Shown: positions 116 through 26,055 of the stretch, one piece after another
Numbering within the stretch: position 1 is the stretch's first letter
Layout of the letters: each line of letters starts with the position of its first letter
IMG/VR virus record: IMGVR_UViG_3300034357_000180
Span: 1-31,108 of that record
Reading direction: 5' to 3' (one strand)
Origin: a virus
Lineage: Duplodnaviria > Caudoviricetes
Length of the DNA: 31,108 bases
The notes under the pieces: model-generated
Database searches by the model: none
The model's input: only the letters and a program-made list of their open reading frames with translations
Told to the model about the DNA's origin: nothing
Position numbers and translations under genes: made by a program

Positions 116-337
116 TCAAGATGGCTCGTCGCTTGGCCCCATCGCCCATGCTTCAGCCTCTGCGACAAGGTCGGCGGGTGTGAGTCCGACAGCGTTCGCA
201 GCGTCTTCAACGGTGAGCGTTTCGGTGACTGCGAGGAGTGTGGCTAGTGCGCCTGTCGGGTCAAGCGGTGTTTGCGGCGGGTCGGGTGTTTCCCACTCGT
301 GGGTCACGCCTTGCGAGTCGGTGTAGTGGTGAATCAT
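116..337 (-). CDS. Small protein downstream of fibre gene (possible fibre chaperone/accessory), allele A
   Basis: TGATG-coupled to the fibre stop codon; homolog at 29935-30144 with many synonymous differences. Confidence 0.7.
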   Translation of the reverse strand: MIHHYTDSQGVTHEWETPDPPQTPLDPTGALATLLAVTETLTVEDAANAVGLTPADLVAEAEAWAMGPSDEPS

Positions 338-1301
338 CAGGTAGCCGCCTTATATCGGAGGTGGATCGGGTTTAACGAACCAGAGTTGCCTGTTCCCCTT
401 TCAGCCCAAGGCAAGGGGCTGGCAGAAAACGCTGCCGCTGTTCGGACGACTTGCGGAGCCGTGATAAACGGGGTGGCCCCGATTGTTTCAATAAGTGACG
501 AGACGCCACCGCGAATAGTTCGGTAGGTGGTCTGAACGGAACTATTTAGACCGATCACATAGTTGCCAGCGGGCAAGGTCACGGGTGTGAACTGGAGGCG
601 ATACAGCCCAACGCCAGCGGTTGATGCGGCGACGGCAGCACTAGCCGTAGCGACGGGAGAACCGACAGGCTGTAAATCATTGTCGGCGTTGTAAACGGCG
701 AGATAGGTCGTGGAGGCCGATGCTGGCCCCGTCGTAACTTCAAAGCCAAACATGTCAACAATGAGCGACTGCGTGATGCGAAACGGGAAGTAAAAGTCCC
801 GATTCGGATTTAAAGACTGAGAGACGACCGATGACCCTTGCATTTCAGGCACCCCATACGAATATCGGGTCGTATTGATGGTGACGGTCGCGGCGTTAAT
901 TGAGGATTCGGTGAACGCCAACGCGTCGGCGGTTTGCGTGGAGAAGTCAGCGTCGAAGACTGCCGATGTTGTGTTGTCGGCGGTGTCATATGCGGACTGA
1001 ACGATGGCGCGATAGACGGTGCCGTCCAAAACGTTATTGCTGCCAAGTGAAACAGAACCAATTTCCAGAGCGGAGGTGCTATCGAAAATACTTGTCGTGC
1101 CAGCAGTCGTAACTGTTGTGCCTAGTTGAGTCCAAGACACTCCGTCATCAGATGTGTAGAACTTGTTCACACGTTGGGACGAACCATTGTTTACTTGCAA
1201 TGTGGCGCGGACCCATTTTGTTGCGCCATCAGCGACACCAGTGGCGACGGTTGAGTCTGTGCCTAACTCCGTTGATCCATCGGCGCTAGTAGTGAGTTTC
1301 A
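144..1301. repeat. Terminal direct repeat, left copy (matches 29951-31108)
   Basis: Ungapped alignment at offset 29,807. By manual comparison, 24 substitutions within 144-543 and none within 544-1301. Positions 1-143 do not match 29808-29950. Confidence 0.95.
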
Positions 1302-2544
1302 ATGTTCCCGTAGTGTTGACGGAAAGAAAATAAGATTTTTGAGAAGCAGTAGCGCGTTTTCCTACAATTATTTGAGCCGCTGCGGGAGTCCAATCAGTCA
1401 TCGACAACTTTACTTTTATATCAATGTCGCCTGTGATCGACAGCGCTGCCGTGTCGGGGGTGCTGGCATAGTTGGCGGTGAGTCCGCTGAGAACCAAGCC
1501 GCTGCCCGACAGATACGCTCCACCAGTCAGTAGCAGACGTGCCGCCGAACCAATCGAAGCCCATTCGGTAGCGTAATTAGTAGCCGAGGTTTTGACTAAC
1601 GCTTGCCCGATTGTGCCGCCGGTAGCGACACCTTCGCCCGTGTCACCCTGCGCACCTTGCGGACCGGTGGCACCCTGCGCACCTTGTGCGCCTTGGAATC
1701 CTTGCGCACCCTGCGCACCTTGTGCGCCTTGTGGGCCGGTAGAACCCTGCGGACCTTGCGCGCCGGTGTCACCTTGTGGGCCTACTGCACCCTGTGAGCC
1801 TTGGAATCCCTGCGGACCCTGCGCGCCGGTTGGGCCTTGTGGGCCTTGTGAACCTACTGCACCTTGTGAGCCTTGTGAGCCTTGCGGGCCAGTCGGGCCA
1901 GTCGGCCCGACCTGCGTATAAGTCACCTGCGTAGCCGTCAAAATAATAGAAGGAACCGCCGGACTAACCGGAGACGTACCAGCCGGTAACGACTCTACTT
2001 GCAAGTCAGTAGACGTACCCGACCACCATACCGCGACCTCATCAGCCGCGACGGCCTCGACAACATAGTTAATAGTTAAAACCTGTCGATTCGGATTACC
2101 GGCCGACTTACGCGCTTGTAAATCTATTTCCGTAGCCGAATCCGGGTAATCGATTCCGTTCAGCTTTAACCAGAAAATAGCTTTTGAAACCGAATTAGCG
2201 TAGTTAGTTATCTGAATCGAGAACGTAATCGAATAAACGCCCGGATACGCGAAACGGATTTTATTGCCGTCGACAATAGAAACGCCGTTACCGTCCGCAG
2301 TCGCACCGATAGAAACAATTTGCGCCGCACTAGTCGAGTTAAGCGGCTGGTCGGTGAGGTCATAGAACGAACCCCAATAGCCGATAGTGCCACCCGCGCC
2401 GGTCGGACCGGTTGCGCCTTGCGGCCCCATAGGACCGGCAGCACCCGCCGCAACGATTGTCGGACCCGCAGAGCGCACAAGCACCGCGCCCGCGTCATAC
2501 CGAACGACTAAATCAGTAACCCGAACAACCGTTTCGCTACTCAT
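337..2544 (-). CDS. Collagen-like fibre / receptor-binding virion protein
   Basis: Short Gly-X-Y run, then a C1q/BclA-like beta domain ([18 protein letters not shown]), 31 Gly-X-Y triplets, then a LamG/ConA-like region ([12 protein letters not shown]...IVGK...[13 protein letters not shown]) and a C-terminal beta domain. Confidence 0.8.
1630..1908 (-). repeat. Collagen Gly-X-Y coding repeat (31 triplets)
   Basis: [12 protein letters not shown]...GAQGDTGEG; 9-bp periodic DNA. Confidence 0.95.
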
Positions 2545-14320: not shown

Positions 14321-15520
14321 TCAGCTTGCGCCGCCGACGAAATGCTTAACCGCGCCGGTCTGGTCAATGAGTAGACCATCGGTACGGAGCTGCACACGGA
14401 ACGTACGAACGCTGTAATCGAACGCGAAATCGTCCGAAACTGCAACGTCGATACCGTTAACTTCGCGGATGTAGTAGCTCGGGAAGTGACCGAAAAGAAC
14501 AGACTTAGCCGAAACTGCCGGGCTAGCCATTGAATCGTTAAGGTACACCGGGAAGCCGAGAAGCGAGTCGGGATCTCCGTTCATGCCGGGAGCAAAAAGG
14601 TAGTGATCGTTTGTTGATCCCTTAAGCTTACGAGCCGCAGCCATAGCGGTATTATTCATCATGAAACCCACGCCCGGTTGTGACGTGTACGCCGAGCCAA
14701 CCGAATAACGAAGGTCGATGAGATTGTCGCCGGTGAAAGCACCGGAAACAGAAGTCGAGCCAGTCTTGCCAGCGGTAGAGCTATTAACGATACCGGTCGG
14801 CTTGCTCGATCCGTCGCCCGTGGTCATATGTCCACGAGTAGCGACACCGATAGCGGTACCGGCCTGACGTGCAAGGAATCCCGCAACGTCTACGGCTCCG
14901 TCACTTGCCAATTCATTAGAGAGCTGCACAAGTACGGTGTACTTGTAAGCTCCGAGCGCGCGGGTAGCAAGAGTCGGATCGGAAGCGGAAGCTTGCGCAG
15001 CTTCGCCAACGATAGACGCGGTACTAAACGCGGTAGACGTAGGAACGTTCAGCGTTTCGCCGGTGTTCGTGGTAACGACAGTAGCGACGTTACGAACCAC
15101 GTTCGTCTGAACGAGATGCTCAACGATGCGATCGTAAACAGAAGTCGGAACCGCACCACCCGAAGACGAAGACGTAATAGCGCGCTTCTCGAAACGTGCG
15201 CTACGAAGCTCGCCGTTCATAAGTGAACGAACGGTATCTTCGTCGCTGTTCTCAACCGAAGCGGTAACGGTTGCGCCAAGATCGGCCGGAACGCCAAGAC
15301 GGGCGCGGCTTTCTTCGATATCACGGTTACGTTGTTCGGCGTCAATGATTGACTTAATACGCGCATCGGCGGTATCAAGCTCTGCGTTAATGCGGTCAAA
15401 CTGCTCTGATTCCTCGGCGGACAGATCGCGTGCTTCGGTAGCGGCGTGGTCAAGTAGACCCTTAGCCTGCTCCCATGCGCGGGCGCGCTGTTCGCTAAGG
15501 TTCTTAATAAACTCCGACAT
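14321..15520 (-). CDS. Major capsid protein, HK97 fold with N-terminal delta domain
   Basis: Coiled-coil N-terminus (~110 aa); GGAVPT, VGEAA, LSNEL..D, TGDGSSKPTGI, LLGFPVY and LFGHF motifs. Confidence 0.97.
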   Translation of the reverse strand: MSEFIKNLSEQRARAWEQAKGLLDHAATEARDLSAEESEQFDRINAELDTADARIKSIIDAEQRNRDIEESRARLGVPADLGATVTASVENSDEDTVRSLMNGELRSARFEKRAITSSSSGGAVPTSVYDRIVEHLVQTNVVRNVATVVTTNTGETLNVPTSTAFSTASIVGEAAQASASDPTLATRALGAYKYTVLVQLSNELASDGAVDVAGFLARQAGTAIGVATRGHMTTGDGSSKPTGIVNSSTAGKTGSTSVSGAFTGDNLIDLRYSVGSAYTSQPGVGFMMNNTAMAAARKLKGSTNDHYLFAPGMNGDPDSLLGFPVYLNDSMASPAVSAKSVLFGHFPSYYIREVNGIDVAVSDDFAFDYSVRTFRVQLRTDGLLIDQTGAVKHFVGGAS

Positions 15521-15616: not shown

Positions 15617-16642
15617 TTACTTACGCTTTCGCGCTAGTTCTAAATACCGTCGAGCAATATCTACAGACCGTCCCGGTTCGGGAGTGTCGGTAGCATCGTC
15701 GGCGGTGCGTACGGTTGCTCCGGTCGTCGCTGCGTACGCGGGCTGACCGGAAACTACCGAAACCTCGTGCAGGCGAATCTCGCGAAGCGTGCGCGCGGAA
15801 CCGTCCGCGCTCCAAACGTCGCCGGATTTCGGAACGGTAAAGCCGAAGCTCATAGAGTGAACCACGCCTTCGCGGAGAAGTACCGAAAGATCACGACCGG
15901 CGGTCGTATCGGGAAGCGTCATATTAACGCGTAGCCCGCGCTCATCCTCTGCGAGCTGTAGCGAACCGTTCTTAGTGGTCGCTAGTGGCATATCAGAATT
16001 ATGGTTTACGTATGCGCGAATTTCCTTACCGGAATTAAGCGAACGCTTAAACGCGCCGGGTGCGATCGTCTCAATAAATGGCAGCGGTTCGCTAGGTGAA
16101 TTGAAGACGGCAGCGTAACCAGTAAACGAACGGGCGAAACCTTCGGCGTCTTCGTCCCCGGCTTCTAACGTCCCTACCTCAACGGTACGAAACTCTACGT
16201 CACGCCCGGCGATACGGCGAGCCTCTACCGGATACGCGGCATAGCGCACCGGTTCCGATTCCGTAACTGTTTCTTCGGTCATGTCTTCCATCGTCTCTAT
16301 GTCTACCGGCGTAACGCCCGACGTTAAACTTTCCGGGATAATCCAAAACTTACATACGCCCATAGGGTCAATATCGCCCGCCACGATTTTGCACGCGCGC
16401 GGACCCTCATAAAAAGAACAGTTAGAACAAACCAAACCTTCACTAGCAAACGGGTTAGCGGCAGCGTCCACGTAATGCGCGCCAGCCTCACCGATGCCAG
16501 TATTAAACTGCCCAAACAATTCGGTAACCGCTTCTAAGTCTTCGTACTGTTTTTGCTGACGCGGCGTAAGCGGGTACATACCGTCGCCGTTGCGGGTTTC
16601 TTCGGTCATAGTGAAAGCTCTTTCGTTCTGTTCGCTTGCCAT
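15617..16642 (-). CDS. HK97-family prohead protease with N-terminal HiPIP-like 4-Cys domain
   Basis: FTGYAAVFN, ETIAPGAF, NH, MSFGF and EVSVV..PAY protease motifs; N-terminal CSNC-x8-C-x12-C-xx-W. Confidence 0.92.
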   Translation of the reverse strand: MASEQNERAFTMTEETRNGDGMYPLTPRQQKQYEDLEAVTELFGQFNTGIGEAGAHYVDAAANPFASEGLVCSNCSFYEGPRACKIVAGDIDPMGVCKFWIIPESLTSGVTPVDIETMEDMTEETVTESEPVRYAAYPVEARRIAGRDVEFRTVEVGTLEAGDEDAEGFARSFTGYAAVFNSPSEPLPFIETIAPGAFKRSLNSGKEIRAYVNHNSDMPLATTKNGSLQLAEDERGLRVNMTLPDTTAGRDLSVLLREGVVHSMSFGFTVPKSGDVWSADGSARTLREIRLHEVSVVSGQPAYAATTGATVRTADDATDTPEPGRSVDIARRYLELARKRK

Positions 16643-17820
16643 TATTCCGGCGGGTCTGCGTCAACGCCGACCGGCGGTAGATCGGGATTCCCACCCGGAC
16701 CGGCCATAGGCGCGCCCGGCAATGCCATAACGAACGCATCGCCGCCGGGGAAATAAGGTTCCATACCCTCAACGTGGCGCGCTTCGTTCGGCGTAATAAA
16801 ACCGGAAGTTATGCCGAGCTGGTGAGCGCGGTATCGGTTAATCGTATCGGCGCGAAGAAACGCGGAAGTATCAAACTCGACGCGCTGCCCGGTAGGCATA
16901 AGGTTAGAAAACGCCGCTTCGATTCTGCGCAACCATGGCAGAAGAGTAAACGTAAGAAAGTTTAAACCGGCCTGTTCGTTATTTGTGTACGTCTGACTAG
17001 CCGATTTTGCGCCGATCATATGCGCCGGAATACGGAAGATGCGCGCGATTTCTGCTACTGCATATTCTCGCGACGCGTTTAATTCCATATCGGCAGCAGA
17101 CGCGCTAATAGGTTTCCACTTAACGCCACCGGAAAGAACGGCGGGACGACGGCGACGGCGGTGCTGCGTCTCCCATGTAGCCTGCAAAACCTTCGCGGCC
17201 TCGACGGTTATATCTCCGTCTACCTCTAGAACCGAAGACGGCGTACCGCCTTCTCCGTACCATTGCGATACGTGACGTTCCACGGCAAGCGCAGAGCCGA
17301 TCGTATTACGTTGCTGATGTAACGGGCTAATACCCTTAGCGGCTTGCGGCGGTGTAAACCATCGCAAGTGCAGAACTTGGTTAGCGTCAATGTCTGAACC
17401 GGCGACCGTGTACGTACGCGAATTTCCTACGATAGTTACATTTACGTTATCGGGATGTAGCGGCACGACCTGAGAAGGAAGCCCGGCAGTACCGCCCGCA
17501 TAGTCAAGCCATAGATACGCGTTGCCGTGAAGCGCCAGCGACGAAACAACCATATGAATAAGTTCGTATTGCGTAACCGTTTCGGCCGGGTCAGTTAAAA
17601 AGCTAGGAGTCTCGATACGTGTATTGCGTTCGCCGGTCTGACTGACCGCACGCAACGGCAACGCCGCTACCGAGTCGGCCAGTAGAGAAACGCACGACAG
17701 AACCGCCGCAACCTCTAGCGCGGTTTCTTCTGTAACGTTCTCGCCTGACCAGTTGTTACCGACAAGGAAACCGGTATTCCGTAACGGCGCGGGCATCGCC
17801 CGCTTAGCAAAAAGACTCAT
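16642..17820 (-). CDS. Portal protein, HK97 family
   Basis: AVLSCVSLLADSVAALPL, HGNAY, GISPL, EIARIFRIPAHMIG and TPNEAR motifs. Confidence 0.97.
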   Translation of the reverse strand: MSLFAKRAMPAPLRNTGFLVGNNWSGENVTEETALEVAAVLSCVSLLADSVAALPLRAVSQTGERNTRIETPSFLTDPAETVTQYELIHMVVSSLALHGNAYLWLDYAGGTAGLPSQVVPLHPDNVNVTIVGNSRTYTVAGSDIDANQVLHLRWFTPPQAAKGISPLHQQRNTIGSALAVERHVSQWYGEGGTPSSVLEVDGDITVEAAKVLQATWETQHRRRRRPAVLSGGVKWKPISASAADMELNASREYAVAEIARIFRIPAHMIGAKSASQTYTNNEQAGLNFLTFTLLPWLRRIEAAFSNLMPTGQRVEFDTSAFLRADTINRYRAHQLGITSGFITPNEARHVEGMEPYFPGGDAFVMALPGAPMAGPGGNPDLPPVGVDADPPE

Positions 17821-19926: not shown

Positions 19927-20511
19927 TTACGAAAGCAACTTACGAATAACGCGACCGATCGGTTTAAGGTCGCGCGAAGAATTCAGCGCGGAACCGGTCA
20001 CGGTGAGATAACGACCCGACCCGTAGATTTCAACGGAACCCGGACCATACGAAACAACGCGCCCGCCGAAGCTAAGCGAAGCCGTCCCCCAAATATGTAA
20101 ACCCGTACCCGAAGGCGAAAGCTCTACATAGGTTCCGGCAACGTCGGAAAGTAAATTGCGTACCCATACATCCGGCACGCCATCGGTCACGCAATGATCT
20201 ACGTCTAAACAAACAACGCCGTCGCCGTTCAAAACAAAACCTAAACCGACACCGGCAGTAGAACTAATTACGTCTTCGTAATCAGTCCACGTAAACGGAT
20301 TCACAGACGAAGCCGTACGCCCGTCCGCTTGTAACGGAATCTTTGAAGCAGTGCGCCTAATCCATCGCGCGCGACTGGTTAGCTCAACCGGAAGCACAAG
20401 CCCGCGCCGGGCGAGACGGTGCGCAGCAGTACGGCAGCGAGTCGAGCAATAACGTGCGTCAGCTCGAGCTAAGACGGACAAAGAATCTAAACAGTTAGAA
20501 CAAAAGCGCAT
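19927..20511 (-). CDS. Stand-alone AEP prim-pol domain with N-terminal Zn finger
   Basis: CxxC...YCSTRCR finger; GLGFVL, CLDVDHC (DxD), ELSPSGTGLHIW and VEIYGSGRYLTVTG prim-pol motifs; no helicase domain. Confidence 0.85.
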   Translation of the reverse strand: MRFCSNCLDSLSVLARADARYCSTRCRTAAHRLARRGLVLPVELTSRARWIRRTASKIPLQADGRTASSVNPFTWTDYEDVISSTAGVGLGFVLNGDGVVCLDVDHCVTDGVPDVWVRNLLSDVAGTYVELSPSGTGLHIWGTASLSFGGRVVSYGPGSVEIYGSGRYLTVTGSALNSSRDLKPIGRVIRKLLS

Positions 20512-24493: not shown

Positions 24494-24976
24494 TTAGTTA
24501 AAGCCGAGCTTCGCCCTACAACCTGGCCACGGTTGCCAGCCGCGTACACGCCATAAACGTAACGCTATTTCGATTTGCTGCGCCCGTGAAGCTTGCCACG
24601 CTTGCGGTGCGTACTCTTGTCCGCCGTACCCGTTCCACGTTGCGTAATGGAACATCAGTAGCCCGGAGAAACCGCCCTTTACCGGCGGGTAGTCGTGCCG
24701 GTTACTCGACTCGCAATAGGCGAGCGCGTTCCATTGTTCGGCGGTCGGTTCTTCGGTTTGCGGTTGAACTGTCACCGTACGCGGTGCCGGTTGCGGTTTC
24801 GGTTGCGTCGTCGTCGTCGTATTCAAAAACGAAAGGTCCGGTAACGTCGTCGGCGGTAACGGTGCGCCTACTAGCTCGTTCGTAGGTGTAGGCGACACTC
24901 CCGGCGCGTCAGCTTGCGCGACACCGCAACCAGTCAGCAACAACAAAAGCACCGTTAACGTAAGTTTCTTTTTCAT
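24494..24976 (-). CDS. Lipoprotein with Rpf-like lytic transglycosylase domain
   Basis: MKKK-hydrophobic-LTGC lipobox; Pro/Thr linker; WNALAYCESS...GLLMF...TW..YGG..YAP.A.QASRAQQIEIA...GWQPWPGC. Confidence 0.88.
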   Translation of the reverse strand: MKKKLTLTVLLLLLTGCGVAQADAPGVSPTPTNELVGAPLPPTTLPDLSFLNTTTTTQPKPQPAPRTVTVQPQTEEPTAEQWNALAYCESSNRHDYPPVKGGFSGLLMFHYATWNGYGGQEYAPQAWQASRAQQIEIALRLWRVRGWQPWPGCRAKLGFN

Positions 24977-25119
24977 TTCGTAACCTCTTTCGGTTTCATC
25001 CAGTAATCACGGTTCGCACGTTTCGAACATCCGCACCGCACCGCCGTAACGGGTAGCGGAGAAACGTAATCGGTATCGCATTTAGGGCAATGCCATTCGG
25101 TAACCGGTTCGGGTCGCAT
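24973..25119 (-). CDS. 48-aa Zn-ribbon-like protein (not in ORF track)
   Basis: MRPEPVTEWHCPKCDTDYVSPLPVTAVRCGCSKRANRDYWMKPKEVTK; coupled on both sides. Confidence 0.7.
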   Translation of the reverse strand: MRPEPVTEWHCPKCDTDYVSPLPVTAVRCGCSKRANRDYWMKPKEVTK

Positions 25120-25526
25120 CAGATAAAATCCTCTTGCGCGGCGAGTAGCTCTAGCTCTGGGTCGGAAAGTTTACGTAAGTGTTTACGGGTTTCCGATCCT
25201 TCGCCGGACCGGGAGAATACGCGGCGGTATGCCTCACGTATCCGCGGGTCGTTTAAACCTTCTAGGCGGTCGGTGTGCTGCGGGTGATACCAGTCCGCAA
25301 AGCTCACGCCGCCCCATATGCCATGCTTTTCTTCGGTCTCGAAAGCGTGCTTACGGCAGTCGTAGGCGACCGGGCAGCGGTCGCATACTTCGCGCGCCTG
25401 AGACGTGGCCGAATAAAACGTTTCGGTCGGTACGTTCTCGATTCGGCAGAGCGCGTCGGTCATCCAGTCGGTTACGCCTTGCTTGCGGTGTCGCGCCCTA
25501 AACCATGCTAGACGGGTGTCAGTCAT
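25119..25526 (-). CDS. whiB: WhiB-family Fe-S transcription factor
   Basis: W...ALC...FY...AREVCDRCPVAYDC...HGIWGG; likely start MTDTRL. Confidence 0.92.
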   Translation of the reverse strand: MTDTRLAWFRARHRKQGVTDWMTDALCRIENVPTETFYSATSQAREVCDRCPVAYDCRKHAFETEEKHGIWGGVSFADWYHPQHTDRLEGLNDPRIREAYRRVFSRSGEGSETRKHLRKLSDPELELLAAQEDFI

Positions 25527-26055
25527 TAGACGCCGCCCACCTAACCGAATCCACGCCATAAGATCGACAGAGAGCGCGCACGTCAATTAGGGCTATCTTT
25601 GTATAGTAATGCGCGCGATCGTTGCCGCGTCTTTTGAACGTTTTTATAGCTGTGAGTAGTTCTACTAGTTCGTCTATTTCGTCTTCCTGCTGAACGGAAA
25701 GAAGCGCAACCGTTTCGCGTGGCGACACAATAAACCGCGGTTCTTTGCGCTTCTGCTCTTTTCTTTTCTGCCATGAGACCCGGACCGCTTCGGCGTGCTT
25801 ATCCGTCTCGGCAATATTGAAACCCGGCGAGCGGTTAGCGATTACGCGCGATTCCTGCTCTTTAGCTTCGTCCCGCGACGCGTAAAAAGTGTGCCTAACT
25901 TCCGTTTGCTGACTCCACCATTTAGCGGACCGACGGTGTTCGTTCAATCGTCGCTTTAGATCGTTGGTTATACCAACGTAAAGCAAATTACCGAACGCGT
26001 CGTATGCTTCGTATAGGTAGGTTTGCTCCGTGTAGTTTCTAGTTCCTGTTTTCAT
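25519..26055 (-). CDS. GIY-YIG domain protein
   Basis: YLY...LLYVGITNDLKRRLNEH...E..VI....PGFN. Confidence 0.85.
   Translation of the reverse strand: MKTGTRNYTEQTYLYEAYDAFGNLLYVGITNDLKRRLNEHRRSAKWWSQQTEVRHTFYASRDEAKEQESRVIANRSPGFNIAETDKHAEAVRVSWQKRKEQKRKEPRFIVSPRETVALLSVQQEDEIDELVELLTAIKTFKRRGNDRAHYYTKIALIDVRALCRSYGVDSVRWAASND

Follow-up and report, generated by a model that had tools for sequence, protein, structure and literature searches.

An optional HiPIP-related cassette on a phage prohead protease, predicted to be released as head cargo

What might a domain resembling high-potential iron-sulfur proteins (HiPIPs), which are periplasmic electron carriers, do on the prohead protease of a phage? 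The question arises from a first-pass annotation of the window, by which we mean the whole stretch analysed here, a virus record of 31,108 bases that is 95% complete. That annotation proposed that capsid maturation could be gated by redox, oxygen or iron status, or alternatively that the virion could package iron-sulfur cargo. We consider it probable (roughly 60%) that an optional HiPIP-related cassette with a predicted [4Fe-4S] cluster enters the prohead on the protease and is freed at [ED]-x-R sites as a small acidic internal head protein. A known fold has likely been put to new use here as head cargo, and not as a gate on the protease.

All long ORFs of the window lie on the minus strand, and the head genes follow the order terminase, portal, protease, HK97-type capsid. 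The portal gene (16642..17820, minus strand) is directly upstream of a 341-aa prohead-protease polyprotein (15617..16642, minus strand), whose ATG overlaps the portal stop codon (TAATG); the HK97-type major capsid protein (14321..15520, minus strand) has its scaffold in aa 1-113. Elsewhere in the window, a small primase-polymerase-like gene (19927-20511, minus strand) is found within the packaging region, directly upstream of the small terminase, and a 735-aa protein with collagen repeats (337-2544, minus strand) is probably a tail fibre. No tRNA was found in the 31,108-base window. A WhiB gene is present at 25119-25586 and near it, in the early region, is a gene for a transglycosylase-like (PF06737) protein in which a lipoprotein signal was matched weakly (24494-24976, minus strand). 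The presence of WhiB and a Transglycosylas-family protein in the window suggests an actinobacterial host. Among the rows of sequencing runs containing window DNA, 22 of 24 have a lake-water or freshwater metagenome label (the best of them may be the source). In RNA runs, contigs of a 90-95% identical relative span the protease gene, although contigs cannot prove transcription.

The protease moiety is complete, as first described: a Peptidase S78 (HK97-type) core was matched at aa 163-312 (15707..16156, minus strand; E=3e-39), its catalytic H214 and S265 are invariant across 48 aligned proteases, and the gene is located between those for portal and capsid. A predicted basic helix at the C-terminus (aa 327-341; 15620..15664, minus strand) is a candidate capsid-targeting tail, by analogy with HK97. 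The cysteine-rich core reported initially (16343..16480, minus strand) corresponds exactly to A55-W100 of the ORF, with Y57, C72, C75, C84, C97 and W100 as predicted [4Fe-4S] ligands and shielding aromatics, and the sequence quoted for it is correct to the letter. The domain is therefore present, but the span given for it was too short; the conserved unit is a cassette of about aa 25-103 (16334..16570, minus strand), consisting of a helix at 27-43 and the HiPIP-like core. The dN/dS values from 14 close sequences were 0.15 (helix part), 0.16 (Cys core) and 0.14 (protease), as against 0.53 in the linker. Purifying selection thus acts on the helix to the same extent as on the Cys core; the helix has no counterpart in the matched part of HiPIPs. 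The acidic linker noted after the Cys domain was also recovered, with nine D/E and a single R in aa 104-133; the region as a whole (16214..16333, minus strand) is predicted to be disordered at aa 108-138 and has VR133|Y and EAR142|R at its end as candidate C-side cleavage sites. On the N-terminal side, a disordered leader contains a predicted maturation cleavage site, E15-T-R17|N18 (16589..16600, minus strand), which would form the boundary of the cassette and whose motif was derived from the capsid scaffold as described below. The full-length structural model had two folded parts separated by a low-confidence stretch at aa 108-138 (pTM 0.49).

The likeness to HiPIPs was evaluated by sequence profile and by fold, and in both rankings HiPIPs came out on top, weakly, in agreement with the first-pass annotation. 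The Pfam HIPIP match of the window copy (E=0.025 and 15.3 bits for the whole protein, E=0.0022 and 18.7 bits for the domain alone) is in both forms below the gathering cut-off of PF01355 (22 bits), which only the two-copy relatives P0212, P0213 and P0312 exceed. A profile of 26 sequences compared with the PDB gave HiPIPs first (3h31, E=1e-4; 1hpi, 1.4e-3; 1isu, 4.5e-3; 1hlq, 0.013; PioC, 0.014). Judged by these scores, the match is weak for the window copy alone and above chance at the family level. The AlphaFold model of the domain reached a pLDDT of 95.8 (130 sequences). When it was used as a Foldseek query, HiPIPs accounted for every match listed (ranks 1-17), with a best E of 0.037 and none at 0.001; in VIA, all 15 entries among the matches listed were HiPIPs, and the alignment with PioC (6xyv) had a Z of 5.7, in a range (below 8) that is common according to the tool, and an rmsd of 2.5 A over 54 residues. 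The fold ranking and the independent sequence profile thus agree on HiPIPs, although the fold scores are modest. No zinc-finger matches were found with the domain among the matches listed in either the profile or the fold searches. Matches of the short Cys motif to disintegrins were dismissed as chance, as they cover part of the motif only and rank below HiPIPs when the profile is used. PHROGs has no family for the domain core, and the viral clusters found in the ESM Atlas at 0.86-0.91 are treated as leads only.

All four Cys are present in 362 of 362 copies, a count that is partly circular because the copies were found by profile. Their spacing is that of HiPIPs, with C72, C75, C84 and C97 aligning to 3h31, 1hpi, 1isu and 1hlq. 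The aromatic shell of HiPIPs (PROSITE pattern) comprises an upstream Tyr, an aromatic residue after the second Cys, and G-[YW]-C-x2-[FYW]. In the phage family Y57 and W100 are each conserved at 99%, and F77 and Y78 are mostly aromatic, but position 96, the residue before the last Cys, is aliphatic (I/V/L in 95% of copies) rather than the W/Y of HiPIPs. In summary, the domain shares with the short members of PF01355 (PioC 6xyv, 1isu, 3h31) the pattern C-x2-C-x8-C-x12-C, the C-x-N-C, the upstream Tyr and the terminal C-x2-W. It differs from them in its extra conserved N-terminal helix, its aliphatic residue before the last Cys, its score below the Pfam cut-off, its place in a head polyprotein, its cluster, which is a prediction, and its lack of a Tat signal; the absence of a signal peptide, remarked on at the outset, extends across the family, a regular expression for the Tat motif having matched 0 of 359 proteins. 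By homology, then, the domain is a HiPIP relative and not a textbook member, and it is predicted that it likely binds a [4Fe-4S] cluster.

The family comprises 1,011 clusters at 50% identity (E<=0.001), or 501 at 1e-10. The domain was present in 90 of 94 candidates of similar length, in 667 of 774 candidates no longer than 151 aa, which may include fragments, and in at least 582 of at least 599 viral stretches scanned. Carriers are almost exclusively uncultured aquatic phages. When 185,579 species genomes were scanned, 15 loci were matched: 11 strong matches on short MAG contigs, three cellular HiPIPs and one spurious locus; the MAGs with matches were mostly aquatic. The cellular HiPIPs align with the family at HH probabilities of 91-93%, and one of them (L209) has a TAT_signal. 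A tblastn search of 50,697 GenBank phages with the window domain matched DSL-LC01 alone, itself a metagenome assembly. A portal match in Geobacillus PK5.2 was spurious, with a single Cys in the matched stretch. Two genes upstream of the DSL-LC01 protease, which has a type-B copy, is a gene labelled high potential iron-sulfur protein in GenBank (L045:3143-3877); it has another Cys spacing and no Pfam HIPIP match. Stand-alone HiPIP-like genes were also seen in a huge phage (LR756508, 484 kb; L215:1291-1686; Pfam E=1.4e-5, above the cut-off) and in the cultured cyanophage S-SRM01 (MW015081:47328-47459).

The survey of domain-bearing phage proteins that had been suggested showed S78, XkdF, S49, ClpP, zeta, ART, HAD and portal partners as well as stand-alone copies. 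Among the best 150 representatives of the family, S78 is the partner in 35 (the domain being N-terminal in 21 and C-terminal in 14), followed by XkdF (11), zeta (6), ART (5), S49 (4), ClpP (3), HAD (2) and portal (1). The domain is linked to a protease in 53 of the 150, at distances of 31-259 aa. No protease family was detected in the other 97, among which 27 proteins are no longer than 170 aa. Some copies are on toxin-like polyproteins or occur alone. Protease-capsid polyproteins with lambda-like portals also carry the domain (L100, L108), with module order shuffled and boundaries kept, as does a portal-MuF giant (L044); tandem type A and type B copies occur in L029, L041 and L043. In L104, L107, L110 and L195 the domain is a separate gene within the head module. 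In two of these (L107:720-1378, L110:3038-3361) it comes right after a cassette-less protease and has a basic tail resembling that of the protease; in L107 the next gene encodes another cassette, Y (described below), by itself.

Many of the stand-alone copies found in large phages are located outside the head module (L038, L041-L043; also the L029 polyprotein), and these may not be packaged. They count against universal packaging unless the [YT]WL[SA][ED] peptide at the start of 88 of 120 such copies is a targeting tag; when stand-alone copies were scored with a profile of the protease tail, the result hardly differed from that of reversed controls. In L041:5552-6255 and L043:5567-6255, neighbouring type B and type A paralogues, each stand-alone, have in common an N-terminal WL[AS][ED] peptide and an acidic tail, and the shared peptide is possibly a capsid-targeting tag or a sign of a heterodimer. 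These copies outside head modules, together with descriptions of scaffold fragments leaving proheads (PMC12749128, PMC9958956), are what one would expect if the cassette worked in the producing cell late in infection, as an electron or iron sink, with fusion serving only for late high expression and the product then being discarded. We regard this as very unlikely, given the repeated fusion to head-entering proteins (portal, protease, capsid polyproteins) and the shuffling of modules with conserved boundaries in L100 and L108.

The boundaries of the cassette were compared with those of the capsid scaffold. In the window capsid, six copies of [ED]-x-R-[ADSNE] are found in the 113-aa scaffold and none in the mature part, and one of the six is at the scaffold end, FEKR|A (R113|A114; 15179-15190, minus strand). 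Across 56 unique major capsid proteins (MCPs), scaffolds contained 326 copies in 6,393 aa, compared with 83 expected by shuffling, and mature capsids contained 0 in 16,074 aa, compared with 18 expected; the motif letters were picked after the sequences had been viewed, and the sequences are related. Since the motif is dense in the disposable scaffold and absent from the mature capsid, we infer that [ED]-x-R is the cleavage site of the protease. The same pattern, seen in the window (15179-15520, minus strand) and in the MCPs of L119-L196, gives the protease specificity of a phage group from sequence alone.

Of 32 unique carriers (the 43 carriers described below, minus duplicates and those with too-short leaders), 31 have a copy of this motif within the 16 residues that precede the domain; shuffling gave a mean of 4.3 and a maximum of 11. 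Comparison of L160 with L167 shows the motif arriving together with the cassette. Inside the domain the motif was found 0 times versus 3.1 expected, a difference that is weak by itself; in the protease core it was found 47 times versus 24 expected, and in cassette Y about as often as by chance. Flanks of the domain in S78 polyproteins have the R-type motif in 30 of 34 cases and a K-type motif in 12 of 34, while in XkdF polyproteins the K-type is found in 10 of 11 and the R-type in 5 of 11. Because the motif at the cassette boundary is the scaffold motif, the protease likely frees an acidic Fe-S protein of about 12.6 kDa, and this release is predicted to take place inside the prohead. With the [ED]-x-R rule, the ends of the fragment can be predicted exactly, and the rule also defines neighbouring uncharacterised cassettes.

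To determine how closely domain and protease are associated, the best 80 of 576 protease relatives were scored; four were dropped as 5'-truncated, leaving 76. The domain is present in 43 of these and absent from 33, none of which contains a CxxC. Carriers and non-carriers differ by a clean indel of about 90 aa, and protease cores can be 100% identical across this divide (L160 vs L169; L139 and L143 vs L155). On a tree of 59 rows there were 10 changes between presence and absence, at least five of them forced by well-supported branches, and one 96%-complete record is without the domain anywhere. By these comparisons the domain is non-essential for head assembly.

These results bear directly on the proposal of a redox, oxygen or iron gate, in which the state of the cluster would control the activity or timing of the protease and make maturation condition-dependent. 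A covalent link to a protease, as seen in the 53 representatives above, is what such a gate would need, and there is a possible parallel in BSS-beta, a cytoplasmic HiPIP-like subunit that has been proposed to gate benzylsuccinate synthase (PMC12590467). However, obligate and fixed coupling of a sensor domain to its protease was not found: protease cores are the same with and without the domain, the domain is N- or C-terminal at widely varying distances, on unrelated protease families, on portals or in a gene of its own, most of the best 150 representatives have no detected protease, the linker is predicted to be disordered with a pTM of 0.49 for the whole model, and a probable cleavage site flanks the domain. 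We therefore consider gating highly improbable. The idea that domain and WhiB form two Fe-S modules, one for transcription and one for assembly, fared no better. WhiB was sought in 50 of roughly 200 loci, most of whose records are fragments, and was found in 20 of the 50 and in 5 of 8 near-complete records; G018 (96% complete) has WhiB and no domain, while the domain occurs without WhiB in G045 (100%) and G036 (97%). Gating and WhiB pairing are thus both unsupported, since the domain is optional, the cores are identical, the linker is disordered and WhiB occurs independently.

A divergent, helix-less HiPIP-like subtype occupies the same slot in phiPsal1 (MG835450; L214:2306-2491), a phage seen in a Pontimonas culture and then lost (PMC6106888). 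This subtype keeps the aromatic residue before the last Cys and is bounded by STR|D and EEAR|Q, the scaffold of the phage ending in FERR|D. Both HiPIP-like subtypes are carried by P0312. The recruitment of HiPIP folds to head polyproteins as several divergent subtypes at the same place suggests selection on the cofactor. Other cassettes occur in these polyproteins. Cassette Y, of about 100 aa (L001:5632-5970 and many relatives), is part of phrog_2859 and has no Pfam match; it is also found in head proteins of cultured Roseobacter CRP and Synechococcus S-CBS1/3 phages (86 GenBank records). Cassette X, a Cys/His cassette of about 50 aa, shuffles with Y in the same polyproteins, and both are gained and lost independently of the HiPIP-like domain. 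The window contains neither, although 99% identical relatives carry Y. L127, L128 and L006 are 99% identical to the window in the domain and 93% in the protease core, and other relatives show the reverse; as judged from these discordant identities, there is recombination inside the protease gene.

The same data can be used to weigh a structural reading, in which a cluster or Zn would stabilise a small fold whose surface binds a capsid or host partner, with no electron transfer. The loss of the shielding aromatic, the added helix and the conservation of the non-ligand residues Q29, G44, H56, N63-P-F65, E85, K98 and I102-P103 are in its favour, as are the HiPIP-like gamma subunits of glycyl radical enzymes, which are thought to aid solubility (PMC13450708), and the tail-tip Fe-S clusters described as required for assembly (PMC10276861). 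It is weakened by fold matches to HiPIPs only, with no zinc fingers among the matches listed, by the dispensability of the domain for assembly and by the filling of the same slot with helix-less subtypes, and we judge it rather unlikely.

The reading we prefer, that of a cassette carried into the head as cargo, had been raised as a secondary idea in the first-pass annotation; as a prediction it is supported by the boundary motif, the dispensability and the promiscuous fusion. Under this scheme the polyprotein would be synthesized late, coupled to the portal gene through the TAATG overlap, and its cluster would be loaded in the host cytoplasm. It would enter the prohead attached to the protease, perhaps by means of the basic C-terminal helix, and co-assemble in roughly 60-90 copies per head, a figure taken from HK97 and D3, for which about 60 and about 90 protease copies per prohead are given (PMC12749128). 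Cuts at R17 and in the linker, at the same sites that would destroy the capsid scaffold, would then release a fragment of about aa 18-133 (12.6 kDa, pI 4.05; 20 D/E and 6 K/R), which would be folded and survive in the mature head. Thereafter, in the course we favour, the fragment would be ejected together with the DNA and act at an early stage of the following infection, either as a one-electron redox protein or as a stable Fe-S binding module directed at host defence. A similar fate has been proposed for ART, kinase and phosphatase domains present in the same polyproteins. Ejection and early action in the next host is the least supported step and, even granting the rest, is put forward tentatively, at somewhat less than even odds.

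A variant differs in this last step only: the freed [4Fe-4S]2+ protein would stay in the head and, as a sacrificial electron donor, lessen the damage that photo-oxidation does to the packaged DNA in sunlit, oxic water. The occurrence of window DNA in lake-water metagenomes, the mostly aquatic MAGs and the several divergent HiPIP subtypes recruited to the same place would fit such a function. It nevertheless appears decidedly unlikely, as the fragment is so strongly acidic that tight DNA binding is unlikely, and some 60-90 electrons per head would be a small reserve.

Internal head cargo has precedents among characterized phages. In T4, IPI, IPII, IPIII and Alt are non-essential, are carried into the prohead and are trimmed by gp21, and two of them, IPI and Alt, are injected (PMC9958956). 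Packaging and injection have been proposed (PMC5512222, PMC9503650) for ART, Nudix and other domains when these are fused to portal, MuF or capsid protease. The phage cassette resembles the T4 internal proteins in being non-essential and in its predicted prohead entry and trimming by the protease, but it differs from them and from MuF-fused effectors in being carried by the protease and in that it would constitute a metalloprotein cargo. Iron-sulfur clusters have been described in phage particles as structural cofactors of the tail tip (PMC10276861). These lambda gpL-like, R4C and RcGTA hub proteins likewise have a four-Cys cluster, which in our case is predicted; as described there, however, they are essential, are part of the tail tip and do not have a HiPIP fold, whereas the cassette is optional and head-linked. 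Another example of a cytoplasmic HiPIP fold that has a [4Fe-4S] cluster and works outside respiratory electron transfer is provided by accessory subunits in glycyl radical enzymes (BSS beta/gamma, HPAD gamma, MASS beta/gamma; PMC13450708, PMC12590467), which are a precedent for structural as well as regulatory use. Each is fixed to one enzyme, in contrast to a mobile and dispensable cassette with many unrelated partners, and none matched the domain model among the Foldseek matches listed.

The nearest named relatives are proteins whose HiPIP name is an automatic UniProt label. A0A6J5M9J5 of an uncultured Caudovirales phage ('HiPIP profile domain') belongs to the family described here (Foldseek E=4e-11 at 50% identity), while A0A879R316 of Synechococcus phage S-SRM01 is a more distant, stand-alone form of 67 aa; no description of function was found for phage proteins so labelled. 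A literature search judged by titles and abstract openings, in which few subscription journals were covered, found no paper on phage HiPIPs and, as had been supposed initially, no characterised example. HiPIP and iron-sulfur terms are absent from the main text of two effector surveys (PMC5512222, PMC9503650), and the word 'iron' from that of the DSL-LC01 paper (PMC10611076). The domain family is real and widespread, and apparently undescribed.

If shuffled HiPIP-derived cassettes are indeed carried in head polyproteins, they would add metalloproteins to the known kinds of phage internal protein, and the cargo reading would be relevant to the iron contained in the virions of aquatic phages and to the ways in which phages withstand or exploit redox stress. 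A stronger version, which we think possible but doubtful, is that many aquatic phages load a true high-potential [4Fe-4S] protein, in tens of copies per head and released by the protease, for redox purposes: as a store of electrons it would protect the genome in sunlit water, or else it would be ejected to blunt the oxidative defence of the host. Were this so, a redox-active cofactor would for the first time be known as cargo of a phage capsid, and the virions of lakes and oceans would represent a new pool of iron.
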